This document shows, piece by piece, positions 16,186 to 40,636 of a DNA stretch of 64,000 bases. Every line of letters starts with the position of its first letter. The first letter of the stretch is position 1. This DNA is from an uncultured Alphaproteobacteria bacterium. Lineage in GTDB: Bacteria > Pseudomonadota > Alphaproteobacteria > Rs-D84. The DNA lies in assembly GCA_944389515.1 (NCBI GenBank), contig CALXMQ010000003.1, positions 44,762-108,761 of the forward strand, read 5' to 3'. The position numbers and the translations under genes were made by a program. The notes under the pieces are model-generated. The model was not told where the DNA came from, did not search any database, and saw only the letters and a program-made list of their open reading frames with translations.

Positions 16186-16896
16186 TTATGTATTCAGGTA
16201 ATGCACAGACATATTTGGTTGACTGGCCACAGTTGTTATTTTTCCATTATCAAATATAATGGCCGCATTATTATCTATTGCCCAACCTGGGATATTATGT
16301 TTTTTCGCCAATGCGTCAAAGAATCCCTGCTCTATCTTGGTCTTGGTATTATAATGTGGCACACAAAAACCATGTATAAAACCCAAACCTGGCAACAAAT
16401 CCAGTTTATTCCAATCTATTTGTCCAGTTTCATTTTGAATATAATCTTCATTATCATAATAATCAAACCAGCATATCGCACCTGCGGACAGACCAGATAA
16501 AATCATACCGGTATCGGCATATTCTTGTAATAATTTATCAAAACCAATTTTTTGCCAGCAATCTATCATGAACCTGGTATCACCGCCACCAACATAGATG
16601 GCGTCAGTGTTGGATAAAATGTTGCGAATTTCAGATTCTGTCGGTGGATTTTCAACCAAACGCAATTCAGACACATTTGCACCCAGCGACGAAAAATGCG
16701 CCATCAAATAGTCTGTATAATTCGGCGAATCTTTGCCTGCGGTTCCCAAAAACAATATGTTTGGATTAGATTTGCCCGTCATTTCTATGATTTTTTTATT
16801 TATTGGAATATTATCCAATGGATATTGTTTTTTGGTGCCATCTGGTAAAATTTTGACACGTCCATTTTCACCACCACCAATAGCGATTATTTTCAT
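16186..16896 (-). CDS. Peptidase E / S51 family (class I glutamine amidotransferase-like)
   Basis: IGGG, LFLGTA, IYVGGGDT, GLSAGAI nucleophile, PHY. Confidence 0.85.
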   Translation of the reverse strand: MKIIAIGGGENGRVKILPDGTKKQYPLDNIPINKKIIEMTGKSNPNILFLGTAGKDSPNYTDYLMAHFSSLGANVSELRLVENPPTESEIRNILSNTDAIYVGGGDTRFMIDCWQKIGFDKLLQEYADTGMILSGLSAGAICWFDYYDNEDYIQNETGQIDWNKLDLLPGLGFIHGFCVPHYNTKTKIEQGFFDALAKKHNIPGWAIDNNAAIIFDNGKITTVASQPNMSVHYLNT

Positions 16897-19729: not shown

Positions 19730-19775
19730 GTTGCGCGCGACGCACCCCAAAAACAGTTATAAATTAAAGCATTGA

Positions 19776-22700
19776 TTCAACCTGTGCTTTAATCACGCTT
19801 GGTATTATCGGCCGTTGTGTTCGATGCGGTTACGGGTAAAATTTTGATTTTTGTTTCATATTTTGAACATAAATTGCGTTACATCACTTTCAACCCTGGG
19901 TTGAATACGAGACGCATTTTACAAGCATTTTTTTCAACATTTCAAAACTATACACGATGCAAAATACGCAAATCGATTGCTGTATTTATGCGCATTTTGA
20001 TTACAAACATGCAAAAGCGAAACAATTCAACCATTGGTTGAATTGGGTCTTGATTTTATGGCATACATCACTTTGTATTATCGACATGTGATTACAAACG
20101 ATATAAATTGATTGTGTACGATACAATATTCAACCTATGATTGAATTCTGTTTTCATTTTATATGCATGACATCACGTTACAGCAGAAACATTTAATAAA
20201 CCAGAAAGTTTTCTGTCATACAATATATACGCAAATCGTTTTAGAATTAGTCGTCTAAATCAACCACAGATTGTGTTTGATATAAAATCAAGGCCATGCC
20301 CCATAAATGGGCAAGCGATTAAACCCACATCCCCCAATATCATGGTTGTGGGATGACCGGTTGGTAAACACGTCGGCGGTGCCCAAAACACCAACCTGTA
20401 CTTTTTACAAAGGCAATGCATAAAGACCAAAAGTTATTCGCACTGTTATACATCTTGGAATTCATGAATACAACAGTGACATTGCCCTAAATACCACGGG
20501 ACAGCACAACCCCAGGTTGAACAAAAATAATTTTACACCGCCATCCTGTGATGTTCAGATTTTTTCCGTGATGCCCGAAATGTAATAAGCGGCCAGGTTG
20601 CAAAATCCGATATCCTTATCCCATATAATCGTCAGAAAATTCGATTTATTCGGCGATTGTCGTTTCACCAGATTTTGCATCAACATAGACAAGAATTTTA
20701 TTATTTAATCAACCTGCGATTGAATCAGGCCTTAAAAAAATATCGTAACAAATATTTTGTTTATTGTTATCACAGTTTTGCTTAGTTGGCAGGCGCCCCG
20801 AAACAATTCAACCACCGATTGAATTGTTTACACTATTCTATTTTTCGCACAATGTTAAAAGCAGCCGCCACGTTCAACCCTGTGTCGAATTTTAATAATA
20901 ATTCTAGTATCTTTCTCGTACAACCTGCTCGCAGACACCCGGTACAGCGTATTTAATTCAACCACGGGTTGTATTTAACCCCAAAAACATATTGTTTTCA
21001 TGTACTTATCAAAAAATGCCGGACGTAAAAATTATAAATCAGTGGCATTGGCTTACTTGTTTTATAACTGGGACGTTTTAAGGTGCGCGATTTGCCCGGT
21101 TTTGTATAAAAAAGAGACATTACGCCAAAAATCCCAGAACGTTTCAACCATAGGCTGAATAAAAAAATAACTCTAATATTTTTACACGACTTTATTTATT
21201 GGGTTTGTATTCAACCCATGGTTGAATTGCCACATGTAACAACATGATGTTTGCACACTATAACAATTTATAATCGAACACCTGCACTAATTCAACCTAT
21301 ACTAGATTTACGCGTTAAAAAATTCCGGCTCTCATGGAACGCCCGAATATTTTCGCATAACTTTGCATAAAAACGTGACAACCGATAGACAATAAAAAAT
21401 CTGCCATTTTGATTCAGAAATTATCGAACTGGGCACAGATTAGCCCCCCCTTTTTTTCATCAACAGAGCCACAAAAAATAACCCATGCGATGAATTTGTT
21501 GAATAATATTACAGTCTGTATCACCAACAGAGAAAGCATCCAAATTCAACATGTTTACTATGGGATATTTACATGTAATTTGTTCTGTTGTGGCGGCAAA
21601 CCCAACAACTTACGATTGAACTTTTGTAATAAATCAACCTGTATTAGAACTGCCGGCTAAACGCCCTACTCTTGCAACACACAAACACATTATAGCACGC
21701 GACAAAAACACCACTGTCGCAACCTGTGGTTGAATCGTACGTTGTTTTCTATTATTCGTAGGTTGAAAATATGTTTTTACACAACCTATGATTGAGTGCA
21801 TGGCCACATTTTTACACAAAATACATCATAATAAACATCTTTCTGCAACAACAAAACAGGTACCAAATTCAACCATAAGTTGCACAAACAAAACAATTCT
21901 ATTATTTCCACCGACTGCATAAATTCAACCCATGGTTGAACATTTTACTAAAATCACGTAACATACAAACGCACATTGTAATAAATACATTTTTGTATCG
22001 GCAGAAAGAGTCCACCAAATTCAACCAATGGTTGAATTTACGTTGTCTTTCTTATTTACAACAGGACACAAACGGTCACAATGCGCTAAATTCAACCCAC
22101 GGTTGAATACACGGCTTTAATCCTGCACAACACAAAAGCAGCCGATGGCAAAACCGCATAATCCGATACTCACACTATCATACATAACAATCTTGATTTG
22201 TATGAGTGGTTATGATGCCCTAAGACACACTATCAACCAAAACAAGAACACTTTTACTATTTCAACCTGTGATTGAATTACGCTTCGAATAAATGCACAA
22301 AATTTATAAAGTTTACCAAAAAAAAGAACGCGACATTTATTTCGGATACTGATTATACAAATAGAAATAATTATGTTGCAGATTGGTATGTAAATTGTGT
22401 TCGACGAGGAAATATAAAAAGTATGGCATCAGCAATCAAATTAAAAATAATGAATGGTAATGAAGCGTTGGACTGGGAACGTTTGTACCAAGACTATTAC
22501 CACTATTCATGTGATTTTAAGCATGTGAATTGGCAAAAACACTGTATGTCTACAGATACAAATTGTGCCAAGGATATGGCCACACAAATTATAAATGTGT
22601 CAAATATGTACTTTTGTTTTATAGCCAGGACATTTTAGGGTGCGATTTACCCGATTTTTGTATAAAAAGAGACTTTGCGCTAAAATTTCCAGAATGCTTC

Positions 22701-26495: not shown

Positions 26496-29400
26496 TTACA
26501 TACTGGTCAAAAATGCTAAATCAGGTGAACAAATTATCCCCAAGCCTTTATCGCTGGTATAGCGCCCTTCCCTGAAATCTATACCACGTGATTTCAGTTT
26601 TTCGCGCAACATACGCCATGTTTCTTGTTCGCCAACGCGGTTCATATCATCCAGTAAAATAACAAATGAAGCATCCAAATTATCTACGATATCCAGAATT
26701 TCTGGGCGTGAGTAATGGTCACTGCCACGTGGGCCATCAATCAGCACCAAATTAAATTTTGTTTTTCCGATGGCATCTGAAAACCCATGATACGTTCTGG
26801 ATTCGTATGGTGGGACAATTTGCACATTTACTGCATCTAATATAGTTGTATAATCAGGTGCATCAGGCATTTGCCGGGCAAAGAAATTCAACCAATCTGG
26901 ATTATTTTCACAAATCATCAATTTTGCGCCCGTGGCACGCGCATATTGTATGGTCAATTTTGACGATTGCCCCAGTCCGCATTCCAGTATGCTGGTGGGA
27001 CGCATTTCATCCAAAACACGATACAATACGTACAGCACAATATAAGACACCGCCCAACGCCCAGGCGACACACTTTTGTTATTCAGCCATGAACTGTTTG
27101 ATATCGTATCATGATAAACATGCGCCCAATATTGTTCAGAATCACGCAAAGATAATTCAGATTGATTACGTTGCACTGCGTCGCCAACCGCAGAAACAGC
27201 CGTGGTAATTTCTGAATTTAATGCAGAAATCTGGTCACCCATGCCATGGCGCATGTTATCAACCGCATCAGTCATATTTTTTGATGCAGTGGCCACGGAA
27301 ACATTGACCGCATTACCCATATCTGTAATTTTAGTATTTAGTTCATCGCGTGCATTATCCACAGATTTATGCAATTTTTTATTCAGCAAATTCGCAGAAT
27401 CTTTGACCACCGCATGAATACTGGCGATACGCCCGTCCAGTTGAACAATGCCGCCATGCAACGTTGTGTGTACAGTATCAGACACATTACGTACATTATC
27501 AGTGACATGTTTTTCCAGGCTGTGTGCGATTTTTTTGGATGATTCACGCATAACGTCCGCCATATCCAGCACACTGGCCGTACCATCAGTTACAACATTG
27601 CGGATTTCATCTGAAAATTCAGATATACGCGCCAAAATATTATTTTGCGTTTCTGAATTTGCCGCAATAATCCCAGTTTTCATACCATCCAGTTGCCGTT
27701 GCAATGTATCACAACGACGATTGATATCTGCAACCGCCCCCATAACCGCCGCATGGTTTTGATTTATCAAATCAACCATGTACCGTCGGCTTCGTGCATA
27801 CAGAACTGATTTTAAGTGGCGAAAAAAATATTTGATGTGATGCGCATTAAAACGTTTGTATAACCAAGATATAAATTTTTTTCTTTGAAATGACGGATAC
27901 ATTTTATTCACAATATCAGTCAATTCTGTTTTCTTGTATCTGTATGGTTCTGTTTCAATATCAACAACAACCTGGGCACCATTTTTAACCGGCATTTCAT
28001 ATGTAAATGGTGCACCATGCCATACAGATATTGGTTTTGATAATATTTCACGTCCATCAATACGCACAGAATTATATGTAACCCATAATGGCACGCGTTT
28101 GCCATCAATCATTTTATAAATTCCACGCAATGATAATCGTAATGTTCCATCACCATGTGATGTTATGACAATTTTTTGACGTTTTTGTGATGATTCAACG
28201 ACACTGCCGGTGCCAGATTCATTTTTGAACCAATCTGGTGTGAATACACGCGCACCAGACGCGACGACGTCCACAGTATTTGTTGATGCCCCAAAGTTTT
28301 TAATATCGACACGAAATACGTTCAAACTATTAAATATATTACGGATATTCATTTTATTCAAACGCGCCCGTCGACCCAACATAGATATCATGTAATATGG
28401 GAATAAAGCATATGTTTTTAACATGCTGTACCGTGGCAATTTATAATATTCACCAGTATCAATATTATATGCCCGTTTGGGTAATTTTAACATTTTACCC
28501 AACATCAGGTTTGTCGCGTCTGTATCCCATACCATAGCCCCCGAAGCTGGTGTAAATGTCATTTCACCAAAATATATTGTTCCATCATCTAATTGATAAA
28601 AATCAACACGGACATAATTAAAACCAGCAGATAATTGTTCCGCCAATTTTTTCATTTGCGCCAAAGACTTTGGGCGTGGTGCAACACTGGAATCAAACAT
28701 ATTATTGTTATAAAAACGTTGTTTTTTCCAATCAGGACTATAAAACGCCGTTTTAAGCCCAGTAGAGTTCCGTCCAGACAATAATTGAATATATTCAACT
28801 TTGCCGTTAAAACACCAAAATTTGTAATCATATAAATCATCTATGGTTTTATTTTCCATAAATTTTTCAATCATGATTTTTGGCTGAATTTCACGATAGT
28901 GTAATTCATATCCGTATTTGAACGCAAAATTTAGGTTCATCCAATAATCTAATTTTTTCTTTACATCTGCTAAATCTAACTTTGTTTTATCACGAACAAT
29001 TATATTCCATCCAGATCCGTGATTACATTTAATAACAAATCGTTTTGGTAATTTCGAAAAATCGATATCTTCGAATCTGTCATATACACCCAACAATGGT
29101 ATCAGATATTTATCACCAATTTTTTCGCGCACCCAATCACGCACCAACAATTTGTCTGCAAGACGTGTTTTTATCGGTGTTGAATCATATAATTTTAACC
29201 ATTGAATTTTTTCATTAAATGTTACAGGACGATATAAATTCAGATATTTATTACAACATTTATTATACCAATCTGATAATAATTGTTTATAATCCAAATC
29301 TGCCACAAAGCTTTTGTATAGTGACGTGTGTTTTGCATAATACCACCAATGTCGGGCATATACTAATTCTGGGTGATTCCATGGTTTTATAGCAGAAGTA

Positions 29401-31136
29401 TAATGAACAATCGATATGTTTTGCTTAGATTTTTCCTGTAATGCTTTATACTGGCTTAGTACATTACTGTTACCTATTGCAGATTGCCACATAAAATTCC
29501 AACCACCATCAATATATTTTACATTATCTTTGCATACCATGTTCAAAATATCTTGGTCGGGACATTTAAGTTGTGTATATTTTTCAACCAAATCAAAGCA
29601 TTTTTGTTCAAGATGTAAAGAATTCCATTTATCGACATTTATCAACAAAACGCCCGAATTAAAATAATCATCAGGATTTATACCCATTTTTTGCAAATAA
29701 TTATACATGCTCTGGCCAACATAATTATGAATCGCGGCAATGTAATTGTCACCAATTTGTTCCTGGAAAATATCGGCAACATCACGCAATATAACAATAT
29801 CACAATCTAAATATAACACACGATGCGCATTTGGAAACAAACGTGGTATCAAAATTCTGTAATACATTTCTGTGGAATAATGCGCCTTTGAATATAAGTT
29901 TATTGATTGAATATATTGATTTACATTGATAAATTTTATACTGATGTTTTCTGATTTTACCGACAATATATCATTTTTTGATTTTTGACTTAAACCACTG
30001 TGGAAAACGGCGATATTGTAAAAATAATTTTTATTTGAATTTTCAACCAAACTTTGCAGCGCAACAACCAAGTATTTAGCATAATTATCATTTGTTGCAA
30101 ATACTATGTTATATGCAAATTCTTGTTGCAGCATCTGTATATGCGATTTATCAAATAATTTGGCATATGTATCCAAATGCGAATAAAAATTATCAGGATT
30201 TTTTTGTATTTGATATTTTAATGAATCTTTAATACGATTATAAAAACCATGTTGTAATAATTGTTGGCGTTTTTGTGTCGTTAAAAATCTTTTTAATTCG
30301 TCAAACGCAATGTATATATTCAATGGATTTGATTTTGATAAATTTGCCGTAATTTGATTGCCTGTATTATATCTGTAATGTATAAATTTTTCTTTTATAA
30401 TGGATATTTTCGATGCAACAGCAACAGCCGCATAAGAAAAATAAACATCATTAGCATTTTCAATGCTTTGAAATTTCAAATTATATTTTGAAATCAATTT
30501 CGCATTAAAAATTTTATTCCAGCAATTTGGTGATGTCAGATTGAAAATTTTATCTTGTACATCATCTATATGTATAACACCTGTTTCTGGGACACATAAC
30601 CATCCCATTTCTTTTGTTACGTTATTTTTATAATCAATCATATCACCAGAAAAAATGCATACATCGGATTTATCTTTTTTTAATTTTGCATAACACTGGT
30701 CCAACATATCCAATTCAAAAAAATCGTCGGAATCCAAGAAAGACAAATATTCACCACGGGCAATGGATAAACCGGCATTGCGCGCCACGCCGGCGTGCAA
30801 ATTTTTCTGGCGCAGGACGGTTATACGTTTATCACGACGGGCGTAATCTTTCAAAATATCCAGCGAACTGTCCGTGGAACCATCGTCAACACATATTATT
30901 TCTATGTCTGGTAACGTTTGATTTACAACACTGTCCAAACATTGCGGTAAATATTTTTCAACATTATATACTGGGATTATAACAGACACACGCGGTTTAT
31001 ACGATATTTTGTTCTGTACAATGATTTCTGCGGTTGTATCTGGGTCGCCATCTGCGTTTTTGACAATTATGATATTATTTTTCGTTACCCGTTTATTCTG
31101 TGACTTCACAGTTTTTTTATTCATTTTCTTGGTCAT
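26496..31136 (-). CDS. 1546-aa multidomain glycan synthesis protein: GT2 + GT8 + TupA-like ATP-grasp + beta domain + long helical/coiled-coil + class I SAM methyltransferase-like
   Basis: VSVIIPVYNVEKYL...FLDSDD (GT2); IVFATNDNY, YLDCD, DQDILN, HYTSAIKPW (GT8); TFNEKIQWLK, DYKFWCFNG, YFGEMTFTP (ATP-grasp); ILECGLGQSS, LIDGP, LLDD (MTase). Confidence 0.85.
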   Translation of the reverse strand: MTKKMNKKTVKSQNKRVTKNNIIIVKNADGDPDTTAEIIVQNKISYKPRVSVIIPVYNVEKYLPQCLDSVVNQTLPDIEIICVDDGSTDSSLDILKDYARRDKRITVLRQKNLHAGVARNAGLSIARGEYLSFLDSDDFFELDMLDQCYAKLKKDKSDVCIFSGDMIDYKNNVTKEMGWLCVPETGVIHIDDVQDKIFNLTSPNCWNKIFNAKLISKYNLKFQSIENANDVYFSYAAVAVASKISIIKEKFIHYRYNTGNQITANLSKSNPLNIYIAFDELKRFLTTQKRQQLLQHGFYNRIKDSLKYQIQKNPDNFYSHLDTYAKLFDKSHIQMLQQEFAYNIVFATNDNYAKYLVVALQSLVENSNKNYFYNIAVFHSGLSQKSKNDILSVKSENISIKFINVNQYIQSINLYSKAHYSTEMYYRILIPRLFPNAHRVLYLDCDIVILRDVADIFQEQIGDNYIAAIHNYVGQSMYNYLQKMGINPDDYFNSGVLLINVDKWNSLHLEQKCFDLVEKYTQLKCPDQDILNMVCKDNVKYIDGGWNFMWQSAIGNSNVLSQYKALQEKSKQNISIVHYTSAIKPWNHPELVYARHWWYYAKHTSLYKSFVADLDYKQLLSDWYNKCCNKYLNLYRPVTFNEKIQWLKLYDSTPIKTRLADKLLVRDWVREKIGDKYLIPLLGVYDRFEDIDFSKLPKRFVIKCNHGSGWNIIVRDKTKLDLADVKKKLDYWMNLNFAFKYGYELHYREIQPKIMIEKFMENKTIDDLYDYKFWCFNGKVEYIQLLSGRNSTGLKTAFYSPDWKKQRFYNNNMFDSSVAPRPKSLAQMKKLAEQLSAGFNYVRVDFYQLDDGTIYFGEMTFTPASGAMVWDTDATNLMLGKMLKLPKRAYNIDTGEYYKLPRYSMLKTYALFPYYMISMLGRRARLNKMNIRNIFNSLNVFRVDIKNFGASTNTVDVVASGARVFTPDWFKNESGTGSVVESSQKRQKIVITSHGDGTLRLSLRGIYKMIDGKRVPLWVTYNSVRIDGREILSKPISVWHGAPFTYEMPVKNGAQVVVDIETEPYRYKKTELTDIVNKMYPSFQRKKFISWLYKRFNAHHIKYFFRHLKSVLYARSRRYMVDLINQNHAAVMGAVADINRRCDTLQRQLDGMKTGIIAANSETQNNILARISEFSDEIRNVVTDGTASVLDMADVMRESSKKIAHSLEKHVTDNVRNVSDTVHTTLHGGIVQLDGRIASIHAVVKDSANLLNKKLHKSVDNARDELNTKITDMGNAVNVSVATASKNMTDAVDNMRHGMGDQISALNSEITTAVSAVGDAVQRNQSELSLRDSEQYWAHVYHDTISNSSWLNNKSVSPGRWAVSYIVLYVLYRVLDEMRPTSILECGLGQSSKLTIQYARATGAKLMICENNPDWLNFFARQMPDAPDYTTILDAVNVQIVPPYESRTYHGFSDAIGKTKFNLVLIDGPRGSDHYSRPEILDIVDNLDASFVILLDDMNRVGEQETWRMLREKLKSRGIDFREGRYTSDKGLGIICSPDLAFLTSM

Positions 31137-31168: not shown

Positions 31169-31636
31169 TTATTTTTGTTTCATCGCCCGGATTTCTGTAC
31201 GCAGGCGTTCGTATTCATCGCGTACGCGGATTGGATATTGAAATGCGTAAACAATACGTTCACCCAAACTGTTGTGTGTGATGGCGTCTGGGGTGGTGCC
31301 GGCGATACCGGATACCGCACGAACATATCGCCCTTCGCGCCAACCAGAATCTATGTAATGCATCAATGGGCATACTTTGGCGACGGCAACATCTGGATTA
31401 TCGGCCAGGTACGCATCCCCATTAAATTTAGGTGATGGATTGCGACCTTCGCGCCAACCGTATTGTACATAATGTGTAATCGGATCTGCCCCAGCGGCGG
31501 CAACATCAGGGTATTTTGATAAATACCATTTTTCATCAAATAATTTTGATTTACGAACCCGGTGATGTAATAAAATACTTTCATATTTTTTACGACCAAT
31601 CAGTCCCAAATGCCGTAATAACTTTATTAAAAACAT
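31169..31636 (-). CDS. Standalone protein made of the glycan-locus repeat WYLxxYPDV...HYxxxGWREGRNPSP
   Basis: FDEKWYLSKYPDVAAAGADPITHYVQYGWREGRNPSPKF followed by a second copy. Confidence 0.7.
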   Translation of the reverse strand: MFLIKLLRHLGLIGRKKYESILLHHRVRKSKLFDEKWYLSKYPDVAAAGADPITHYVQYGWREGRNPSPKFNGDAYLADNPDVAVAKVCPLMHYIDSGWREGRYVRAVSGIAGTTPDAITHNSLGERIVYAFQYPIRVRDEYERLRTEIRAMKQK

Positions 31637-31676
31637 GTCCTGTTCCCTTTGATTTAATCAATTTTTGGCAAACAAT

Positions 31677-31809
31677 CTGACGGAGGTTAAAAATTTCAAA
31701 ACTCAGCCTCCTGACGGAGGTCAGACTGTCTGCCTGTTTTGAACGCTATAATAGTACTAGAAATAAAATCCTAAGCAAGTCATTTTTTTTGAAATCTAAC
31801 CTCCGTCAA
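31677..31809 (-). promoter_or_regulatory. Putative invertible promoter cassette 1 (sites A, B, C with GA core; promoter TTGCTT-16-TACTAT)
   Basis: A 31677-31690 CTGACGGAGGTTAA; B 31711-31724 CTGACGGAGGTCAG; C 31796-31809 inverted (rc TTGACGGAGGTTAG). The -35 (31773-31778) and -10 (31751-31756) lie on the minus strand between B and C. Confidence 0.8.
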
Positions 31810-31850
31810 AATGAAATATTCCATTGTTTTTTCAACAAAAAATGGAATAA

Positions 31851-31880
31851 AAAAATCGCCCCCAATGGGGCGTATTTTTT
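31851..31880. terminator. Terminator after ABC flippase, insulating cassette 1
   Basis: AAAAAATCGCCCC-CAAT-GGGGCGTATTTTTT. Confidence 0.75.
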
Positions 31881-31881
31881 A

Positions 31882-33846
31882 TTATGCGGCACTGGGGGCG
31901 TTGGGCGATGGCGGTGTCGCAGCATTTTGTGGTGCGGCCGGTGCCATAGGCGCGACCCCAGGCTGGGGCGCCGGTGTGGGCGCAATCGCCGGTTTTGGTG
32001 TTGGCTGAGCCGCCGGTTGTTGGGTTGGTTTTGCACCTGTATCTGTGCGACATTTGAACTGCATATCATACAATGTTTTGTATGCGCCGCATTCGTTTTG
32101 CATCAGTTCTTCGTGGGTGCCGGCTTCGACTATTTCGCCCTGGTTTACAACAACAATCTTGGACGCATTACGAATTGTTGACAATCTGTGCGCGATTACA
32201 AACACTGTTTTATCTTGCATCAGGTTTTCAATCGCACGTTGAACAACGGCCTCGGACTTATTATCCAGGGCGGATGTCGCTTCGTCCAGAATTAAAATCG
32301 GCGCGTTTTTCAAAAATGCACGCGCAATGGCAACACGCTGTTTCTGGCCACCAGACAACAATATGCCGCGTTCGCCGATTTGTGTGTCCAATCCATTTTT
32401 CAGACTGTGTATAAAATCATCTAAACATGCCATTTTTACCGCAGTTTGCAATTCTTCTTCGGTGGCATGTTCATTGCCCAGCATGATATTGTCGCGAATT
32501 GTACCAGCAAACAAGAAATTATCTTGGAACACAACGCCGATATTATTACGCAATGATTTTAATGTATAATCGCGGATATCTGTACCATCAACCAATATTG
32601 CCCCAGATGTCGGATCATAAAATCGTGGTAACAAACTGACCAATGTTGTCTTGCCCCCACCAGAATTACCAACCAATGCGATAATTTGCCCCTGGGACAC
32701 AGTTAAATTGATGTTCTTTAAGATTGGTACCCCTTTGTTATATTCAAATGACAGGTTCTTGAATTCTATGACCCGATGCGTCGCAGGCATTTCCCGTGCA
32801 TTTGGACGATCGGCAATCGCAGGTGCCTTGTCCATAATATCAAATACACGTTCAATCGCCATAAATGACATCAATACAGAGTTATAATTTGACCCCAGGC
32901 TTTTCATCGGGTTATACAACATTATCAATGCCGTTAAAAAGGACACAAATCCACCACTGGTGATATAATTATTCAATACCAGGTATGAACCAAACCATAT
33001 CGCCGCACCAATACCAATCGATAAAATTATATGCATAACAGGGGTCAACCAACGGGTCTTTTGCACCATTTTCATTTGCAATTTGAAAACGCCGTCCAGA
33101 ATCGTTTTGAATTTGTTTTGTTGATATTCGCCCAGGTTATACGATGTAATTGTCTTGTTCCCAGAATATGTTTCATTATATGCGGTCATCATGGTCGAAC
33201 TGGCCATAATATTGCTGTCGAATACAGATTGCAGTTTCTTTTTCAATGTCGTCATCGGCAAAAATGCCACAAATAAAATCGTGACGCAAACCGCCGCCAG
33301 TTGCCATGAATTATAAAACAAAACAAATATCAATGATATCGCAGTAAATAATTTCTGAACAAAGTTTTTTAAGTTTGTCAGCAATCCAGCGCACGCCATA
33401 TCTGCGTTATTGTTAAACATCATCAAAATATCGCCAGAATTTCTGCGGTTAAAGAAATTTGTATCAAAACTGAGCATTTTTTTATACAAATCTAGCTTTA
33501 ACAAATTTGTAATTTTTGCCCCAACCCACGTATTCAGATAATTTGCCGCGTATGTCAATGCACCCTGTAATGACGTAAATAAAACAATAACCAATGGAAT
33601 ATACCATGCCGCCTGTAATGATTTATCAATCATCACCAAATCCATATATGGTTTCAGCGACATGGCGATAACACCTTCGAGTGCCCCAATCGGCATCGCC
33701 AATAATATAGATAATAAACCCTGGAACCAGTATGGTTTTACATACGGCCACATACGTTTATAATTTTTAACTATTGCAGTACGCGCCAGTTTATGGGTGC
33801 TGGCTTTCTGTTTATCATCTTGCTTCATCTTTTTTATCCGCATCAT
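31882..33846 (-). CDS. MsbA/PglK-type lipid-linked glycan flippase ABC exporter with Pro/Ala/Gln tail
   Basis: TM domain, GNSGGGKTT, LSGGQKQR, ILDEATSALD; located inside the glycan operon. Confidence 0.88.
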   Translation of the reverse strand: MMRIKKMKQDDKQKASTHKLARTAIVKNYKRMWPYVKPYWFQGLLSILLAMPIGALEGVIAMSLKPYMDLVMIDKSLQAAWYIPLVIVLFTSLQGALTYAANYLNTWVGAKITNLLKLDLYKKMLSFDTNFFNRRNSGDILMMFNNNADMACAGLLTNLKNFVQKLFTAISLIFVLFYNSWQLAAVCVTILFVAFLPMTTLKKKLQSVFDSNIMASSTMMTAYNETYSGNKTITSYNLGEYQQNKFKTILDGVFKLQMKMVQKTRWLTPVMHIILSIGIGAAIWFGSYLVLNNYITSGGFVSFLTALIMLYNPMKSLGSNYNSVLMSFMAIERVFDIMDKAPAIADRPNAREMPATHRVIEFKNLSFEYNKGVPILKNINLTVSQGQIIALVGNSGGGKTTLVSLLPRFYDPTSGAILVDGTDIRDYTLKSLRNNIGVVFQDNFLFAGTIRDNIMLGNEHATEEELQTAVKMACLDDFIHSLKNGLDTQIGERGILLSGGQKQRVAIARAFLKNAPILILDEATSALDNKSEAVVQRAIENLMQDKTVFVIAHRLSTIRNASKIVVVNQGEIVEAGTHEELMQNECGAYKTLYDMQFKCRTDTGAKPTQQPAAQPTPKPAIAPTPAPQPGVAPMAPAAPQNAATPPSPNAPSAA

Positions 33847-33847
33847 T

Positions 33848-34525
33848 TTACATCAATTCATCATTTGTTGATATGTCTGTGTCGTATGTTTGGGGCATGC
33901 CACCATCCATTAAATTCTGTTTAATCCATATACCTATTTTGCGTTTTGTCTGGGCGCCTAAAACACGTTCAACTGTTATTTCGCGTACTGCCATAAATAT
34001 TTTTCTGGAATCTTTTGGTGGTGTATATGGCTGGGTTGCCAGAAATTGCAAAGACAACGTATCGTCTGACATTACCGATGCCGGAATATTGGCCACAAAA
34101 GGCCCGTCATATCCGACACGCCATACAGCAACCTGGATCCCGTTGGCCAAAACAGTTACCTGTTGATACGTGGCGGTATTCGGGTTAAACACCCCAAACG
34201 CATCAACCGTTACACGTAAATCTGTGCCGGCACCATTTGGAATATACAGGTTCAGCACCGATTCCATATTTAATGCACATCTGTGTTCTGGTTCTTGGCC
34301 GCCCCAACCGTCAGATGTTTTAATATATTCCGCACTGTTGCCATCACGTGCAAAAGATATCGGCGTACCTAAAATATATGGTCGAAATTTGTTCTTGTCA
34401 ACAGTTGTGGTGGCAATATCCGACATCATGGCGTTATTATATTGATGACGATATATCATAAATCCCCCACCAACAACCAATGCCACAGCGACAATCACAA
34501 TTAAAAATATCTTCCATTTTTTCAT
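33848..34525 (-). CDS. Membrane-anchored hypothetical protein (beta-sandwich-like)
   Basis: N-terminal TM anchor; GWGGQEPEHRC...VTVLANG pattern seen in glycan-locus accessory domains; coupled to neighbours. Confidence 0.55.
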   Translation of the reverse strand: MKKWKIFLIVIVAVALVVGGGFMIYRHQYNNAMMSDIATTTVDKNKFRPYILGTPISFARDGNSAEYIKTSDGWGGQEPEHRCALNMESVLNLYIPNGAGTDLRVTVDAFGVFNPNTATYQQVTVLANGIQVAVWRVGYDGPFVANIPASVMSDDTLSLQFLATQPYTPPKDSRKIFMAVREITVERVLGAQTKRKIGIWIKQNLMDGGMPQTYDTDISTNDELM

Positions 34526-37500
34526 GATTTTACCTGTTGTTGTTTTTTAGTTTTATTTCGCATATATTTGCATGCAAATAAATAATACGGAAATAACAAA
34601 TATGCCAGTAAAATATTTCCAAGACGTTCACGGCGTACTTCATAAAACACTTCTGGATATCGGGTCAAAACATTTTGTAATTGTTCATCGTTGTAACATT
34701 TTTCCACAGTATTTGTTTTCCACAGGCATTGGCCATCTTGACTGCCGGGGACAAAATTCAATGCAGAAAAACTGTTATTGATAATGTGTATCTTGGTGTG
34801 ATTTTTTACCGCCATTGCCCAAATCCATATATCATCAGCCATTGGGCACAATTCTAAAAATTCAGATTCATTTAATATATTTTTATCCAGACAATGTGGC
34901 GGATACAATACGCCACCAACACCAGTTAGAAAATTATTATACACCGCAGATTCATTTTTGAACGACATTTTCCATGCGTTATACGGTGCGATTTTTCCTT
35001 TATTAAACACAATTCTGTGTGCACGATGACAATGGATAATATTTGGACATTCTGAATATGCGTCCAGCAACAGTTTTAACCAATTTTCTGTATATAAAAT
35101 ATCATCGTCTGCGGTTACCAAAATCGCATCAGGGAATTCGCGCAATGCAGGAATAATCTTTTGAAAACTGCGTAAAGTTTTATCAATCCAATGAATTTCA
35201 AATGTATCATCCAACAAATCTGTCAAGTTACGTGGCAACGAAGGTCGTTTTTTTGGAAATTCTGCCCTGGACAGATATAAAATTATTTTGTCTGGTTTAA
35301 CAGATTGATTTTTCAATGTCTGGATTGTTTGATATACAGAATCGATACGCGCCGGATATGAAGTCACAGATACAACCACAGGATTAGTAATTTTGCATAA
35401 ACGTTCGCCCTTTAACCGCGCGACATCATAATATTCTTTGACATATGTTGGGCGCAATGATTTATGCATACCAGTAAAACGATTTTCATATTTGCCATAC
35501 TTTTCGTAATGCAGCAACGGATTTACCCCAGCACGCGCAACATCTGGGTTATTATATAAATATAATCCAGTATCAAATTTTGGTGACGGATTATATCCAA
35601 CACGCCAACCGGTATCTAGATAATGTTGCGCAGGATTTATATCCATTTGTGCTACATCCGGATACATACGCAAATACCAGCGCCGATTAAAATATCTGGA
35701 ATGCTTGATATATTCTAAATTTGATGAATAATTTTTCTTGTGTTTGAATAATTTTATAAACAGCTGGTTGGCGCGTACATTGGCGTGTTTACGCCATGTG
35801 GTAAAATTATGAATTTTTGCGATTTTCAATCCATGCCCAGCCACCAACAAACCAAATACAGTTTCTAAACTGTGGGCAACGGTACCAACACTGCCGGTTT
35901 TAGAATCTGCACTAAAATCAGATTCTTTGAACGGATATTGTTGAAATGGCAGCAATAAATCTGAACGCACCGCAAACATTGTTCCACATACAAATGGGCA
36001 AGTTGCAAAATATTTTACCCCCATTTTCTGGCATAATTGTTCCGTATTTTTCGCCTGAGACGTTTTTTCTGTATCACCAATTAAATTACCACTGCCGACC
36101 ATGCCGACGCCTTTGCGTTTAATCAAGCGTGACAAACGTTCAAATTGATGACGCGACCCAATCAATGGATTTATTAAATCGTCATGCCATTGCCAACCAT
36201 TGTATATAATCCCGTTTTTTATCCATGGTGTTGCCCTGGCATTTTTAGTATGCATTTTCAGCACAAATATGTAATCAGCCAAAGACACTTGTTGCAGAAC
36301 CAACCAAAACGGATATATGTCATAACCGCGATTTGGCACATGCAGAATATGAACATCTGGTTTGAACTGTTTCAGTTTATATTCTGTGGATGCGACATGT
36401 TCTGTTACCGTAACATATAAATCATAATCACGGGTTATATTTTTTAATCGATGTAAAAACCAATCCAACTGGTCATGATAAAATAAATGCAAATGAACCA
36501 AGATTTTATTTATTTTATACTCTGTTACTGACGGCTTATAATTATGAAAGACCAATTTGAATTCAGGATGAAAACGCAGGCTGATTTTATCAACAGGATA
36601 ATGACGTATTCCATTTTTCCATAATAAATAATTAAAGCTTAGTTGATCACGTCGTGAATAATTTTTAATAAAATCCCACCATTGTTCACATAATTTTTTT
36701 ATTTTTGCATCATTATGACGTCGTAATAAAACATTTGTTTCGTACAACCCATTATGTTCAGGATATTTATCTGCACGCAATATTTGCATTTGTGTATTTA
36801 TCAAATCAGGATTATCTTTGCCATCAGCGATACATGCCGCAGCTTCATCATAAATACAATCGCGATGTGGATGCAATGATATTGCAATTTTATGATTTGC
36901 ACGAATATGCTTGTTTATCAATTTATATATCGCAGGTCCACTGATTTGAATATTACTGTCCATCCAAACAGAATATTTGTATTCCGGGAATAAAATGTGG
37001 GGATGTGTTTTATGCCATCTGGCATTACGAACATTATCTGCCTTAGAAAACGCCAAAGGTTTAATTTGCCACCATAAAAAACGCTTCTTTTTTAATAACT
37101 TTGCATTATCTGTAAATAAAACATAATCAAAATGTGCATCAGGATAAAAATCAGTTATAATTTCATCATATCCACCAGATATACAAGAATAAATCACACA
37201 ATTTATATTTTTTATTGCATCGTGTTTTGCCCAATATTGTATCGATACATTTTCATCAATATATGAACCCGTGGTATAATTATGTTTATGACCGAATTGT
37301 TCATAATGCAATAATGGGTTTATGTGACAATCTTGATAACGTTTCAAATACCCATTTGTATCAAATTTAGGGCTGGGGTTGCGGCCTTCGCGCCAACCAT
37401 ATTGCATATAATGACGCACAGGATTTATCCCGGCGCGTTTAACGTCGGGATACATATTCAAATACCATTTTTTATCAAAATACTTTGATTTTGATATCGT

Positions 37501-37533
37501 TTTATAATCTTTGTCGCGATGCGATATCGTCAT
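34522..37533 (-). CDS. 1003-aa multidomain glycosyltransferase: repeat + DUF616-like + RgpF-like + repeat + GT-A domain
   Basis: VIYSCISGGYD, WMDSNI, SRRDQLSF (DUF616); VHLHLFY, NRGYDIYPF, KMHTK (RgpF); VSVTSYPARI, TADDDILY, TGVGGVLYPP, ADDIW (GT-A). Confidence 0.82.
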   Translation of the reverse strand: MTISHRDKDYKTISKSKYFDKKWYLNMYPDVKRAGINPVRHYMQYGWREGRNPSPKFDTNGYLKRYQDCHINPLLHYEQFGHKHNYTTGSYIDENVSIQYWAKHDAIKNINCVIYSCISGGYDEIITDFYPDAHFDYVLFTDNAKLLKKKRFLWWQIKPLAFSKADNVRNARWHKTHPHILFPEYKYSVWMDSNIQISGPAIYKLINKHIRANHKIAISLHPHRDCIYDEAAACIADGKDNPDLINTQMQILRADKYPEHNGLYETNVLLRRHNDAKIKKLCEQWWDFIKNYSRRDQLSFNYLLWKNGIRHYPVDKISLRFHPEFKLVFHNYKPSVTEYKINKILVHLHLFYHDQLDWFLHRLKNITRDYDLYVTVTEHVASTEYKLKQFKPDVHILHVPNRGYDIYPFWLVLQQVSLADYIFVLKMHTKNARATPWIKNGIIYNGWQWHDDLINPLIGSRHQFERLSRLIKRKGVGMVGSGNLIGDTEKTSQAKNTEQLCQKMGVKYFATCPFVCGTMFAVRSDLLLPFQQYPFKESDFSADSKTGSVGTVAHSLETVFGLLVAGHGLKIAKIHNFTTWRKHANVRANQLFIKLFKHKKNYSSNLEYIKHSRYFNRRWYLRMYPDVAQMDINPAQHYLDTGWRVGYNPSPKFDTGLYLYNNPDVARAGVNPLLHYEKYGKYENRFTGMHKSLRPTYVKEYYDVARLKGERLCKITNPVVVSVTSYPARIDSVYQTIQTLKNQSVKPDKIILYLSRAEFPKKRPSLPRNLTDLLDDTFEIHWIDKTLRSFQKIIPALREFPDAILVTADDDILYTENWLKLLLDAYSECPNIIHCHRAHRIVFNKGKIAPYNAWKMSFKNESAVYNNFLTGVGGVLYPPHCLDKNILNESEFLELCPMADDIWIWAMAVKNHTKIHIINNSFSALNFVPGSQDGQCLWKTNTVEKCYNDEQLQNVLTRYPEVFYEVRRERLGNILLAYLLFPYYLFACKYMRNKTKKQQQVKS

Positions 37534-37563
37534 TATTTTCCCTTTGATTTACACAAGTGATAC

Positions 37564-37591
37564 AGTATAAAATATATCACCGTAAAATCAA
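37564..37591 (-). promoter_or_regulatory. Fixed sigma70 promoter TTGATT-16-TATACT for the middle glycan operon
   Basis: Hexamers on the minus strand 30 bp upstream of the ATG at 37533. Confidence 0.65.
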
Positions 37592-37605
37592 GTAATTTTA
37601 ACCAC

Positions 37606-37634
37606 AAAACCGGGCAAAAAGCCCGGTTTTTTTT
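37606..37634 (-). terminator. Terminator after tail-fibre gene pair
   Basis: AAAACCGGGC-AAAAA-GCCCGGTTTTTTTT. Confidence 0.75.
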
Positions 37635-37635
37635 A

Positions 37636-37932
37636 TTACTGCTTTGGAAATTGTTGCTTTATCGCCGTTATCGTATCAGACCATGTATTGGTACCATTTA
37701 TTTTATCCCAATATATCATGTCTAACTGGTCCGATATTGGTGGGTACATCGCGACCCGTTGTTCTGTATATGTCATGCTGGGCGCATGGGGTGCGTGACC
37801 CGATACGTACGCAACGCCATTTACGATTTCTATATCTGGTATTTCAACGTCAAATCCAAATTGTTTGGCTATTTTTGGGTTATCGGTGTATGATCCCAAC
37901 TTATAATTTGTAACTTTATTTGTGTAATACAT
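37636..37932 (-). CDS. Phage tail-fibre-associated small protein
   Basis: C-terminal YxEQRxxxYPxIxDQLDMIYWD...GTxxWxxxIxAIKQQFPK motif typical of phage tail-fibre-adjacent proteins. Confidence 0.65.
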   Translation of the reverse strand: MYYTNKVTNYKLGSYTDNPKIAKQFGFDVEIPDIEIVNGVAYVSGHAPHAPSMTYTEQRVAMYPPISDQLDMIYWDKINGTNTWSDTITAIKQQFPKQ

Positions 37933-37934
37933 TG

Positions 37935-38765
37935 TTATGCCCCATGGAATATAAACAGTCTTTGATAATTTATATCTGTCAATTTTGGTACAATCACTTT
38001 GATTTCCAGACCCGCAAAAACAGGTAACAAAATTGTTTCGCGCATGCCGGTTGTCATACGACGATTATATATTGTTTTTGCATATGGGGCTTCGATACTG
38101 ACGTCCGAATTGGCCCCAGGCACAAATACCAATGTCAACAGACCGTGCGCTTCGGGTGTATATGTGTATGTGCCTGCATCTGTGCCCAAGAAATTCAAAC
38201 TGATTAAATCACCATCTATCAGTGACCATCCAATCACAGTGTTGCGACCATCGGCAGTAAAACTGGTCGCATTTTGCAATGCAGATATATCTGTTTTTGT
38301 GCCGATGTTTTCAACACCACCCAATGCGGTCAGTTGTTGACCGATGTTGTCCAGTCGTTGTATAAAAGCATCAAAATCTGGTAAATTTACAATATCTGAA
38401 TACTTGGTTGCAAAATCATCCAATGTACCGGCAAAATCTTTTAATTTTTCAATTACAAAAGAAAAATCTTGGTTTAATGCAACTGTGTCAATCGGGACTG
38501 TCGGTTGATAATCCACAATTCGTGTCAATCCGATATTGCGCGAAATTTTAATTTTTGCACCGGAAACTGGCGCTGTATCAAAAACTATTGTTCCCCCAGA
38601 ATATGGAATATCTGATGGTTCTGGACTGTCTGTGGGTGATAATTGAAACCCAGAATTTATTGTCGTACCGTTCACGTTTACCACAACATCAGATGCGGTA
38701 AAAAACGGAAATGAAAAAACAAAATCCTTGGTTTGTCCATCACCCGTGTATGTTATTGTTGTCAT
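37935..38765 (-). CDS. Short phage tail-fibre protein with T7 gp17-like N-terminal adapter domain
   Basis: TYTGDGQTKDFVFSFPFF...VVVNVNG...IVFDTAPVSGAKIKISR...VDY...ALNQDF; RBS AAAGG before ATG 38765. Confidence 0.75.
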   Translation of the reverse strand: MTTITYTGDGQTKDFVFSFPFFTASDVVVNVNGTTINSGFQLSPTDSPEPSDIPYSGGTIVFDTAPVSGAKIKISRNIGLTRIVDYQPTVPIDTVALNQDFSFVIEKLKDFAGTLDDFATKYSDIVNLPDFDAFIQRLDNIGQQLTALGGVENIGTKTDISALQNATSFTADGRNTVIGWSLIDGDLISLNFLGTDAGTYTYTPEAHGLLTLVFVPGANSDVSIEAPYAKTIYNRRMTTGMRETILLPVFAGLEIKVIVPKLTDINYQRLFIFHGA

Positions 38766-38894
38766 TTTGTTCCTTTCTTTTATCAGATAAAAAAAGTGCG
38801 CCAATCGCGCACAACAAAAAATTCGGGGATGTTTTATCCCCGAATTGTTGGATATAAGTATATCATAAAATCATAAAAAAATCAACATGAATCA

Positions 38895-39905
38895 TTATTT
38901 ATGCGTAAAAATTTTAATCAATGGTATAAAATCAAACAAATACACTTTGTAACATGTCGTTGTTATAATATCATGACGTTGCCGATAAATCGTTACCAAT
39001 GGTATTGATAAAAAAGTCAAACGATAACTTTTTTCATAACGCGGTTTTTCACTGATTGCCAACTTTAACCCAACGCGCATGGCGTTTTGATAAATTTTAT
39101 CCACCAATACCGCAGATGCATACGGATACAAATATTGTATCCCCGGTAAATTAGGCAAAGAATTCTTTTTCAAAAATGGCAAACCACTTTTTAACATTTC
39201 TAGTGGTTTATCATATACACGATGCATTTTATCGCCAACTTCGCCACTGATATACGTAGACATCCGGTACCCATGTTGCAATACGCGTTGTGATAAACCG
39301 ACTTCATATTTCAGTACAATCAACTGCTTATCAACCTGGTGTGTAATTTCGTTCATAAATTCATGTAAAAATGCAGAATTCGCAACACGACGCGATAAAC
39401 CAACAAACCAAGATTGAACCTGGACAGGTGTTGCCTGATTCGCAAAATCAATCATGCCAGTTAAATCCACACCACGTGTTTCTAAGTCAACCAGAATTCC
39501 TTCGATATCAAACAGTGGGCCATATACACTGTCATTTACCAGATAAACCCAATCATATTTATTTAATAAATTATTTTTATCTGCCCATTGATATCCACGT
39601 TTATATGAACCAAAGTCATATTCGCCATGGCGTTCGGCCTTGGCATGTAAAATGTTTGGTATTTCTTTTAACTTGTCCAATTCTGGGTCAGATACCTTGT
39701 TATCCATAAAGAATATAACATCGCCATACCCAGACAGGCATTGCAAATAATGTAACAAGGAATCGTCTATAATTCCTTGGGCATCATAGCCAGCAAATAA
39801 AAATAATCTTTTTGTGTTCATAATTTTGCCTGCTGTACCACCAGATGTTTTATATCGTTTTTGTTGCATGTGTATCCCCTGGTATTTAGTGCAAAACACG
39901 CGCAA
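38895..39905 (-). CDS. Rhamnan synthesis protein F (RgpF)-family glycosyltransferase; true start probably near 39820-39870
   Basis: LFLFAGYD..GIID, GEYDFGSYKRG, LVNDSVYGP, VQSWF, YEVGLSQ, PFLKK. Confidence 0.82.
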   Translation of the reverse strand: MRVFCTKYQGIHMQQKRYKTSGGTAGKIMNTKRLFLFAGYDAQGIIDDSLLHYLQCLSGYGDVIFFMDNKVSDPELDKLKEIPNILHAKAERHGEYDFGSYKRGYQWADKNNLLNKYDWVYLVNDSVYGPLFDIEGILVDLETRGVDLTGMIDFANQATPVQVQSWFVGLSRRVANSAFLHEFMNEITHQVDKQLIVLKYEVGLSQRVLQHGYRMSTYISGEVGDKMHRVYDKPLEMLKSGLPFLKKNSLPNLPGIQYLYPYASAVLVDKIYQNAMRVGLKLAISEKPRYEKSYRLTFLSIPLVTIYRQRHDIITTTCYKVYLFDFIPLIKIFTHK

Positions 39906-39906
39906 T

Positions 39907-40030
39907 CAAACGGTGGTTAGCCAAATAATAAACTGACGGTGGTCAGATTGTCTGCTTGTTTTGAACAACAACATGGTACTGGAAATAAAATTTATATCAA
40001 GTATTTTTCTTGAATTTTAACCACCGTTAG
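39907..40030 (-). promoter_or_regulatory. Putative invertible promoter cassette 2 (sites A', B', C' with GT core; promoter TTGATA-16-TACCAT)
   Basis: A' 39907-39920 CAAACGGTGGTTAG; B' 39933-39946 CTGACGGTGGTCAG; C' 40017-40030 inverted (rc CTAACGGTGGTTAA). The -35 is at 39995-40000 and the -10 at 39973-39978. Homologous to cassette 1. Confidence 0.8.
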
Positions 40031-40039
40031 ATTGAAAAA

Positions 40040-40636
40040 TTACCCGTTTGTGCGCAAAAAACGTGTTATAGTTGCCGCAGAAACGCGAAAGTTGCGTGCA
40101 ATATACATTTTCGTATAACCTTGGTTCAGCATTTTTATAACCGTTTCATATTTGCCATCCATTTTATGTCGTTTATTGCGACTGCCGAATGCACGCCCCA
40201 GTTTATATCCCTGGGCACGTCGCAATGCCAATGCTTCTTTGGTGCGTTGACTGATTAAATCGCGTTCTATTTCCGCAGATAATCCAAACGCAAATGCCAA
40301 AACCTTGCTTTGTATATTATCCCCCAATTCATATCCGTCTTTGACGGTATATACACGCGCCCCGATATTCATACAATGTTCCAAGATTCGCATTATCATG
40401 AACATCTTGCGCCCCAATCGCGACAGTTCGGAACATATCAATACATCGCCCGATTGTAATCTGCGCAGACATGACCCCAATGCGCGTTTGTTGGGCTCTT
40501 TGGTGCCAGACACGCCAGAATCTTGGATATATTTTTCAATTTGAATGCCCAGTGAACGCGCCTTGGCTTCTATGCCCAACTTTTGATTTTCGCAATCTTG
40601 GTGGTCAGTACTGACCCGTATATAGCCATATACCAT
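40040..40636 (-). CDS. Mpi-family serine recombinase (DNA invertase), 198 aa
   Basis: YGYIRVST catalytic Ser; SELSRLGRxxFMIMxIL..CM and DNIQSKVLAFAFGLSAEIERDLISQRTKEAL as in Bacteroides Mpi; C-terminal HTH; RBS AAGGAGG before ATG 40636. Confidence 0.9.
   Translation of the reverse strand: MVYGYIRVSTDHQDCENQKLGIEAKARSLGIQIEKYIQDSGVSGTKEPNKRALGSCLRRLQSGDVLICSELSRLGRKMFMIMRILEHCMNIGARVYTVKDGYELGDNIQSKVLAFAFGLSAEIERDLISQRTKEALALRRAQGYKLGRAFGSRNKRHKMDGKYETVIKMLNQGYTKMYIARNFRVSAATITRFLRTNG

Follow-up and report, generated by a model that had tools for sequence, protein, structure and literature searches.

A candidate phase-variation system in an uncultured alphaproteobacterium: two invertible promoter-like cassettes and an Mpi-like serine recombinase in a surface-glycan locus

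The window described here, a 64-kb stretch of contig CALXMQ010000003.1 from an uncultured Alphaproteobacteria bacterium, contains a surface-glycan locus in which the gene for a small serine recombinase stands directly beside one of two short, related cassettes. Cassette A (31673-31813) and cassette B (39903-40034) are each about 140 bp long, lie about 8.2 kb apart and carry promoter-like elements between oppositely oriented sites. Promoter inversion by a shared invertase is a hallmark of surface variation in gut Bacteroidales, and our analysis points to a comparable arrangement at this locus. We favour, with a probability of roughly 0.8, the reading that this is a phase-variation system in which one Mpi-like serine invertase flips both promoter cassettes. 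The inversions themselves can be seen directly when contigs of the same species are compared with one another.

The recombinase gene lies on the minus strand at 40040..40636 (start MVYGYIRVSTDHQ), where the open reading frame encodes a protein of 198 aa. The sequence blocks by which the first-pass annotation had recognised it as a serine recombinase are present, and the gene has its own ribosome-binding site (AAGGAGG) with a TATAAT box upstream. Pfam places a Resolvase domain at residues 2-144 (4.5e-34) and an HTH_7 domain at residues 160-196; the catalytic serine sits in a (YI)RVST motif and the protein ends in a helix-turn-helix, the features by which members of the Mpi family are recognised. 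Against NF009949, the NCBIfam equivalog model for the 'master DNA invertase Mpi family', the protein scores 255.6 bits, with residues 1-197 aligned to model positions 1-196 of 203. Metagenome relatives that score above the cutoff of this model (276-342 bits) are 52-57% identical to the window recombinase, the highest-scoring of these comparisons being L105 (342 bits, 52% identity). Matches to solved structures are distant in comparison: Gin is the best, at 51.6 bits and 28% identity, followed by gamma-delta resolvase at 45.7 bits, and Tn3/gamma-delta resolvases as a group score 38-46 bits through the same catalytic domain. Judged by scores and identities, the enzyme appears to group with Mpi-type invertases and not with Hin/Gin or Tn3 resolvases, most plausibly as a sister branch of the Mpi family that falls narrowly under the curated cutoff. 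The Mpi-type assignment of the first-pass annotation therefore holds with that small reservation, and its concern that the enzyme might branch with Tn3-type resolvases is not borne out, because the solved structures (Gin, gamma-delta) are far more distant than the relatives that match the Mpi model.

Cassette B begins 6 bp past the recombinase stop codon, and the two cassettes, already noted as similar, align at 80% column identity. Each contains three sites: S1 and S2, which lie toward the gene, are directly repeated, and S3, at the far end, is inverted. In cassette B, S3 occupies 40013..40034 on the minus strand (CAATCTAAC-GGTG-GTTAAAATT, dyad centre 40023/40024), its inner partner S2 occupies 39929..39950 on the plus strand (TAAACTGAC-GGTG-GTCAGATTG, dyad centre 39939/39940), and S1, 26 bp from S2, occupies 39903..39924 on the plus strand (CAATCAAAC-GGTG-GTTAGCCAA). 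The corresponding sites of cassette A are S3 at 31792..31813 on the minus strand (CATTTTGAC-GGAG-GTTAGATTT, dyad centre 31802/31803), S2 at 31707..31728 on the plus strand (CCTCCTGAC-GGAG-GTCAGACTG, dyad centre 31717/31718) and S1 at 31673..31694 on the plus strand (CAATCTGAC-GGAG-GTTAAAAAT, dyad centre 31683/31684), the last with 119 bp between its centre and that of S3 and with S2 at a distance of 34 bp. The inner 14-nt arms of cassette A (31712-31725 and 31795-31808) are 93% complementary, and the longest inverted repeat of either cassette is formed by S1 and S3 (17 nt, 88-94% complementary). The first-pass annotation had described each cassette as a two-site, two-state switch; its inner inverted pair was correctly identified, with 85 bp (A) or 84 bp (B) between the dyad centres of S2 and S3, while the number of sites has to be revised to three and the number of states to four.

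Each site is about 22 bp long and consists of two imperfect half-sites around an asymmetric GG-W-G centre. Read outward from the dyad centre, all 12 half-sites have G-T-Y-A at positions +3 to +6, and most extend as GTYAGATTG. A dyad-symmetric site with an asymmetric centre is the crossover-site layout of a serine-recombinase dimer, as in hix, gix and res site I. In the core, ACGGWGGT, W is A at every site of cassette A and T at every site of cassette B; because the symmetry centre of the site falls between G and W, the 2-bp crossover would lie at G|W and would be GA throughout cassette A and GT throughout cassette B. The pattern ACGGWGGTYA has six matches in the 64 kb, three in each cassette and none outside them, compared to 0.33 expected in shuffled sequence, and none of 100 shuffles reached six. 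Neither a looser pattern nor the 22-nt consensus revealed further sites in the 64 kb.

To follow the cassettes across strains, we compared 30 metagenome contigs from independent samples with nearly identical flanks, which were selected by an identical recombinase, a one-residue variant of it (P0002) or an identical 155-aa protein encoded behind cassette A, and which came from assemblies with scaffold_, NODE_ and k141_ record styles as well as from Logan. Cassette B is spanned by 19 contigs and cassette A by 17, and the copies that could be resolved, including the window, number 19 for B and 18 for A. The promoter-like element of cassette B points toward its gene in the window, L059, L060 and L061; in 15 contigs (L001-L007, L009, L010, L069, L071-L073, L077 and L078) the segment between S2 and S3 is the exact reverse complement with its flanks unchanged, and B is hence OFF in 15 of the 19 resolved copies (18 contigs and the window). 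The hybrid sites of the inverted form, ACGGTGGTCA on the left and TAACCACCGT on the right, are those predicted by a crossover within the 8-bp core.

Cassette A is found in more arrangements than cassette B. Three sites predict four of them, and all four were found, state 4 having been predicted ahead of its discovery. State 1, the ON arrangement of the window, is shared by L002, L004, L060, L061, L063 and L067; state 2, in which the segment between S2 and S3 is inverted (OFF), occurs in L006; and state 3, inverted between S1 and S3 (OFF), occurs in L001, L003, L005, L007, L008, L009 and L069. In state 4 (L059, L064 and L066), the promoter is again forward (ON), with S2 and the spacer now upstream of it, and S2 is reoriented in both states 3 and 4. 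Every product is an inversion between oppositely oriented sites, and no S1-S2 deletion product was present in the contigs examined. The strains differ by 74-150 single-nucleotide polymorphisms per 10.6 kb of flank, and different states are interspersed across the strain clusters and among carriers of either allele of a large glycosyltransferase gene in the locus, which indicates repeated switching rather than one old polymorphism. RecA-type recombination was rejected as the cause, given repeats of only 8-17 nt and precise junctions. Comparison of assemblies thus reveals recurrent, natural, site-specific inversion of promoter-like segments, and the earlier proposal that the segments between the sites invert in nature is confirmed by cassette B in both orientations and cassette A in four arrangements.

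Between S2 and S3, each cassette carries a promoter-like element on the minus strand, TTGCTT-16-TACTAT at 31778..31751 in cassette A and TTGATA-16-TACCAT at 40000..39973 in cassette B. Both are located where the first-pass annotation had described promoters aimed at glycosyltransferase genes, and its statement that both switches are 'ON' in this assembly agrees with the orientation in the window, where both elements point at their genes (A in state 1). The placement of the -35 box, 16-nt spacer and -10 box is shared by cassettes A and B and by the cassette on contig L051 (TTGATT-16-TATTAT), which represents a related species and in which the rest of the segment has diverged; it is this conserved position across cassettes, not rarity, that gives the elements their weight. 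The invertible segments probably carry active promoters. Neither cassette contains a promoter of the Bacteroides type, for which the consensus is TAnnTTTG at -7 and TTTG at -33 (PMC4747536, PMC8748976).

The conserved layout also bears on the possibility that the segments invert without any promoter and act through a terminator, a leader hairpin or an operator, with transcription starting elsewhere. Such a role would suit the hairpins that the sites form in leader RNA (z-scores between -4 and -5 in cassette A) and the terminator-like matches on S2, and it would make less of the -10 boxes TACTAT and TACCAT, which are imperfect, in an AT-rich region where promoter-like matches occur at chance frequency. 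It does not account for the retention of the -35/16-nt/-10 position in A, B and L051 despite the divergence elsewhere in L051, nor for TTGTAA-17-TAAAAT in the unrelated invertible segment of a further species, P0050. In addition, no other promoter is placed to serve the target genes, because upstream of them lie a convergent gene and terminators in the case of A and the 3' end of the recombinase gene in the case of B. We therefore regard a promoterless segment as unlikely.

When reversed, promoter A would face two terminator-like hairpins (31817-31883) and the end of a convergent gene for an ABC transporter. Promoter B in its OFF orientation would face the recombinase gene from its 3' end; the stop codon is only 6 bp away, and no terminator lies between. 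Antisense transcription of the recombinase gene from promoter B in the OFF state, and hence feedback on switching, is possible.

The gene faced by promoter B (38895..39869, minus strand) encodes a 324-aa glycosyltransferase of the RgpF family, similar to rhamnan synthesis protein F (Pfam RgpF, 1e-18), and its gene calls start at the same ATG in 20 contigs. Behind cassette A, also on the minus strand, the first gene (31169..31636) encodes the 155-aa protein, which has no family match, and the second (26496..31136) a 1546-aa multidomain enzyme with GT2, GT8 and TupA-like ATP-grasp domains (Pfam Glycos_transf_2, 6e-38; Glyco_transf_8, 6.5e-46; ATPgrasp_TupA, 1.1e-54). Within the 155-aa protein, a stretch of about 35 aa is present twice, with the motif Y(L/V)..(Y/N)PDVA.A...P..HY...GWREGR. 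Further glycan genes on the minus strand fill the interval between the switches (31882..38765) and encode proteins of 276 aa and 98 aa, a 1003-aa TOD1/MUCI70 + RgpF protein, a 225-aa protein and a fused ABC exporter of 648-654 aa; neither invertible promoter lies directly ahead of them. The large glycosyltransferase of this interval (34522-37533) occurs as two strain alleles, one of 1003 or 977 aa with TOD1/MUCI70 and RgpF and the other of 1091 aa with GT4/GT1 and RgpF, the latter in L004, L005, L008 and L069 at about 13182-16457. The two alleles represent strain-level glycan diversity added to phase variation.

In the mechanism that we propose, the Mpi-like enzyme would bind each site as a dimer, bring oppositely oriented sites into synapsis and exchange strands at the G|W dinucleotide, whose asymmetry would enforce inversion. 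Recombination between S3 and S2 would flip 84-85 bp and recombination between S3 and S1 110-119 bp, producing four interconvertible states, two ON and two OFF, and S1 may double as an accessory site. In serine recombinases, mismatched crossover dinucleotides cannot be religated; the mismatch between GA in A and GT in B would for this reason insulate the cassettes from each other and bar A-B recombination, which would invert or delete the intervening 8 kb. The two ON states of cassette A may differ in output, making the switch graded rather than binary, because they differ in what separates the promoter from the gene. The leader of state 1 contains two sites, including the S2 hairpin followed by a T run (flagged by a terminator scan in both cassettes), and the leader of state 4 contains one hybrid site that forms a perfect 15-bp hairpin of -28 kcal/mol. 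Cassette B would control the RgpF-like glycosyltransferase and cassette A the 155-aa protein together with the 1546-aa GT2/GT8/ATP-grasp enzyme, so that two cassettes with separate targets would give combinatorial variation of the surface polysaccharide.

A more far-reaching interpretation, which we put forward tentatively and consider rather doubtful as a whole, sees in the three sites a switch that is purpose-built for a single serine invertase and capable of four states. Two of the states would be OFF and two ON, the latter of unequal strength; the dinucleotide would serve as an address code that prevents recombination between neighbouring switches; synapsis would be free of an enhancer and perhaps helped by the third site; antisense transcription could provide feedback; and the design would recur ahead of surface genes of unrelated kinds within a gut lineage of the Alphaproteobacteria. 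If this is true, inversions of 84-85 bp would rank with the shortest that are known to be made by serine recombinases.

Several observations weigh against a phase-variation system of the kind proposed, or narrow it. The adjacent recombinase is only the presumed catalyst of the inversions, which were established from assemblies, and at 255.6 bits it stays 16 bits short of the curated NF009949 cutoff of 272 bits (a whole-protein score). Promoter-like matches are about as frequent as chance predicts for so AT-rich a region (49 compared to 44 expected), and 84-85 bp is a very short length of DNA for proteins to bridge as a loop. None of the 19 resolved copies of cassette B is an S1×S3 product. Immediately downstream of the RgpF-like gene, a strong terminator-like hairpin (38846..38820) suggests that the control exerted by cassette B ends with this one gene, and the count of targets is that of two cassettes within the 64 kb covered. 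Finally, graded expression and insulation of A from B are both properties that we infer.

Adjacency can mislead, as it would in B. fragilis, where mpi adjoins the tyrosine invertase Tsr19, which controls a neighbouring promoter (PMC4747536), and the part of the present genome that is readable is limited to 64 kb. A different recombinase, encoded elsewhere, might thus catalyse the inversions while the adjacent one has another role. We consider this quite improbable. No second recombinase was found among the open reading frames of at least 120 aa in the window that were scanned with Pfam (six were unscanned, three of which have unrelated families in precomputed gene tables). The remainder of the window consists of ordinary Gram-negative chromosomal genes, including those for BamA, RNase III, RNase E/G, RecG, LigA and a class A penicillin-binding protein; with such surroundings, a mobile-element origin was also rejected. 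Moreover, the cassette abuts the recombinase stop codon in three species, and the sites both have the dyad symmetry and asymmetric centre of serine-recombinase crossover sites and resemble sites found beside proteins that pass the Mpi model.

The evidence comes from assemblies throughout, and short inverted repeats can confuse assemblers, which raises the question of whether the alternative arrangements could be assembly artefacts or fixed strain differences. The repeats, at 8-17 nt, are below both the assembly k-mer and the read length, the same states occur in assemblies of different sources, and the junctions correspond exactly to reciprocal crossover within the core. The manner in which contigs break is informative as well. 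L070, L074, L075 and L076 terminate exactly at the core (...CAATCTAACGGTGGT, also given as ...ACGGTGGT); L062, L065 and L068 begin exactly at ACCWCCGT, the latter two at ACCTCCGTCAGATTG; and N runs fall exactly between cores in scaffolds L008 (10618-10648) and L062 (about 8041-8140). Such breaks and N runs at the cores are the usual signature of mixed orientations within one sample. Together with the scattering of states across strain lineages and a fourth state that was predicted and then found, this leaves artefacts or fixed differences as a very improbable explanation. The suggestion, raised by the first-pass annotation as a possible refutation, that the sites act only as operators for a DNA-binding regulator would fit their dyad symmetry and their position between promoter and gene, but it is contradicted by the physical inversion of the intervening DNA with hybrid junction sites and has almost no likelihood left.

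Among known systems, the phase-variation system proposed here most closely resembles that of Mpi from B. fragilis. Both enzymes are serine recombinases of small size, about 200 aa, that end in a helix-turn-helix, and the Mpi model gives the best, full-length match for the window enzyme; short segments with promoter-like elements are inverted before surface-glycan genes; and a single enzyme seems to act on at least two cassettes. The systems differ in other respects. The host is an uncultured alphaproteobacterium, the promoter-like elements have a sigma70-type -35/-10 layout instead of the Bacteroides TAnnTTTG, and the segments, which measure 84-119 bp from one crossover point to the other, are shorter. 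In addition, there are three sites and four states per cassette, the enzyme gene directly adjoins one of the cassettes, and two targets are known.

The crossover sites of the two systems can also be compared. The Mpi repeat core, given in the first-pass annotation as ARACGTWCGT (neither this string nor ACGTWCGT was found in the literature searched), had been likened there to the local core; the central W is indeed shared, but the two bases flanking it differ (local RACGGWGGT, with ACGGWGGT as opposed to ACGTWCGT). The outer half-site sequences ATCAAACG...GTTAGATT are common to both site types, as is the central W. A metagenome scan with a recombinase alignment yielded 80 loci with 50-69% identity, none of which had the ACGGWGGT core beside the gene, and a generic inverted-repeat search near these 80 loci was mostly uninformative, with L102 and L128 as exceptions. 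In L128 (3620-3770), a recombinase with 297 bits on NF009949 is followed directly by an inverted-repeat cassette with the site ATCAAACGTTCGTTAGATTT (also ATCAAACGTTCGTTAG), which contains AAACGTTCGT and is one real instance that fits the consensus ARACGTWCGT. Compared with S1 of cassette B (ATCAAACGGTGGTTAG), this site matches in 14 of 16 bases, and the two differences flank the central W. In L102 (3640-3790), where the recombinase reaches 305 bits, a cassette with the site AAACGAACATTAGATTT comes directly after the gene. Taken together, these alignments argue that the window sites are homologous to Mpi-type sites. The genes downstream in L128 encode an HTH_7-domain protein and a GT2 glycosyltransferase.

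For the two ON states of cassette A, the closest functional precedent is the Tsr19-dependent IVp-I switch of extracellular polysaccharide (EPS) in B. fragilis, an invertible promoter with extra inverted-repeat copies, although Tsr19 is a tyrosine recombinase and hence of an unrelated enzyme class. The number of repeats between promoter and genes varies among the ON forms of that switch and is inversely correlated with expression (PMC4747536, citing Chatzidaki-Livanis 2008).

Hin, Gin, Cin and Pin belong to the same superfamily as the window recombinase, and in these systems the crossover sites are dyad-symmetric and an asymmetric central dinucleotide imposes inversion. These enzymes are far more distant in sequence (28% identity to Gin), and they act on sites of about 26 bp that bound kilobase segments, with a Fis-bound enhancer and a need for supercoiling, whereas the segments of 84-119 bp found here leave no room for an internal enhancer. 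Tn3/gamma-delta resolvases share the catalytic domain and have three binding sites per locus. Their res subsites, however, act in deletion between directly repeated res copies; here, each product observed arose by inversion inside a single cassette, two or more of whose three sites are themselves crossover sites.

The first-pass annotation had further proposed that an Mpi gene was acquired horizontally, which our comparison with related species does not support. The gene order UDP-glucose dehydrogenase / TatD / ThiF / DUF378 / recombinase / RgpF is kept in species with 75-86% recombinase identity, the G+C content of the recombinase stretch is an ordinary 0.40, and, among the thousands of relatives with at least 70% identity, the named ones are labelled Alphaproteobacteria or Rickettsiales. 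Given this conserved synteny, ordinary composition and range of relatives, any transfer would be ancient. The closest of the species compared, L051 (labelled 'uncultured Alphaproteobacteria bacterium'), has a recombinase that is 86% identical and scores 256.2 bits on NF009949, with the same gene order and a three-site cassette directly past the stop codon.

In the P0050 species (L169-L176), the recombinase is 73% identical and lies in a different genomic context. A three-site cassette (core AAC[C/G]GTGGTTAAAT; about 2095-2290 in L169) is situated between the recombinase and a CarboxypepD_reg protein of 822-955 aa, and its segment of about 125 bp has the promoter toward the gene in five contigs and away from it in three. 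The same design would therefore control a non-glycan surface protein in this species. A more distant example comes from a metagenome-assembled genome (MAG) of Alphaproteobacteria from sheep rectum, whose recombinase is 49% identical and scores 278 bits on NF009949, with a AACGGTGGTTAAAAA inverted pair about 700 bp from the gene.

The sister species P0015 and P0020, with 80% and 76% recombinase identity, keep the gene order of the window, and their distal sites, TGACCGTTGGATTG, have a 3-bp core deletion. In P0015, the promoter spacer has also lost 12 nt, the recombinase is longer at its C terminus by 15 aa that read through S3, and the cassette is in the same orientation in all ten contigs (L079-L088, about 4600-4740 in L079; sister locus L177, 2106-2230). 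The cassettes of both species are apparently locked switches beside an intact recombinase. We had expected more switching in these two species, and found locked-looking cassettes instead.

A scan of a genome collection for site pairs returned 48 matches, which is about the chance number, and none of them came from the species of the window; those that looked related are L051, L013/L053 and L038, all from Alphaproteobacteria MAGs. Three of the matched loci (L034, L046 and L058), from the acidobacterial Pyrinomonadaceae MAG JTS-RE369, contain a complex palindromic element of repeated AACGGAGG(TC/CA) units. They represent an unrelated repeat family that matched solely because its repeat units fit the search pattern.

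Invertible promoters have been surveyed across many phyla, including Proteobacteria (PMC11602134). The NCBI pipeline already labels some alphaproteobacterial homologues of the recombinase 'Mpi family', and a description of the present system was not found in the literature searched. If our reading is right, the shared-invertase strategy of the Bacteroidales would also operate in uncultured low-G+C Alphaproteobacteria, with a sister branch of Mpi, proteobacterial-type promoters and a richer site layout. Sample names suggest that the sources are human and animal gut. With an enzyme of 198 aa, sites of 22 bp and cassettes of about 140 bp, the system is very compact and defined by sequence, and it could serve as a multi-state genetic switch; it also offers a natural test of the minimum invertible length for serine recombinases and of the central dinucleotide as an insulator of several switches per genome. 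For genome annotation and binning, the consequence is that assemblies fix an arbitrary orientation and that contigs often break at the sites. Since public assemblies break or carry N exactly at the inversion cores, MAGs would be fragmented at every such switch.

Two other parts of the window deserve mention. About 2.5 kb at 19750-22270 contain no open reading frame longer than 83 aa on either strand, and neither an Rfam match at E <= 0.1 nor tandem repeats were detected there; this part could be a decayed gene or an unknown RNA. At 12081-16090, the G+C content falls to 0.30, compared to about 0.39-0.40 across the window, and this island encodes an N6/N4 DNA methylase, a 688-aa protein without a family match and a D12-class (Dam-like) adenine methylase, which together probably form an acquired restriction-modification module.

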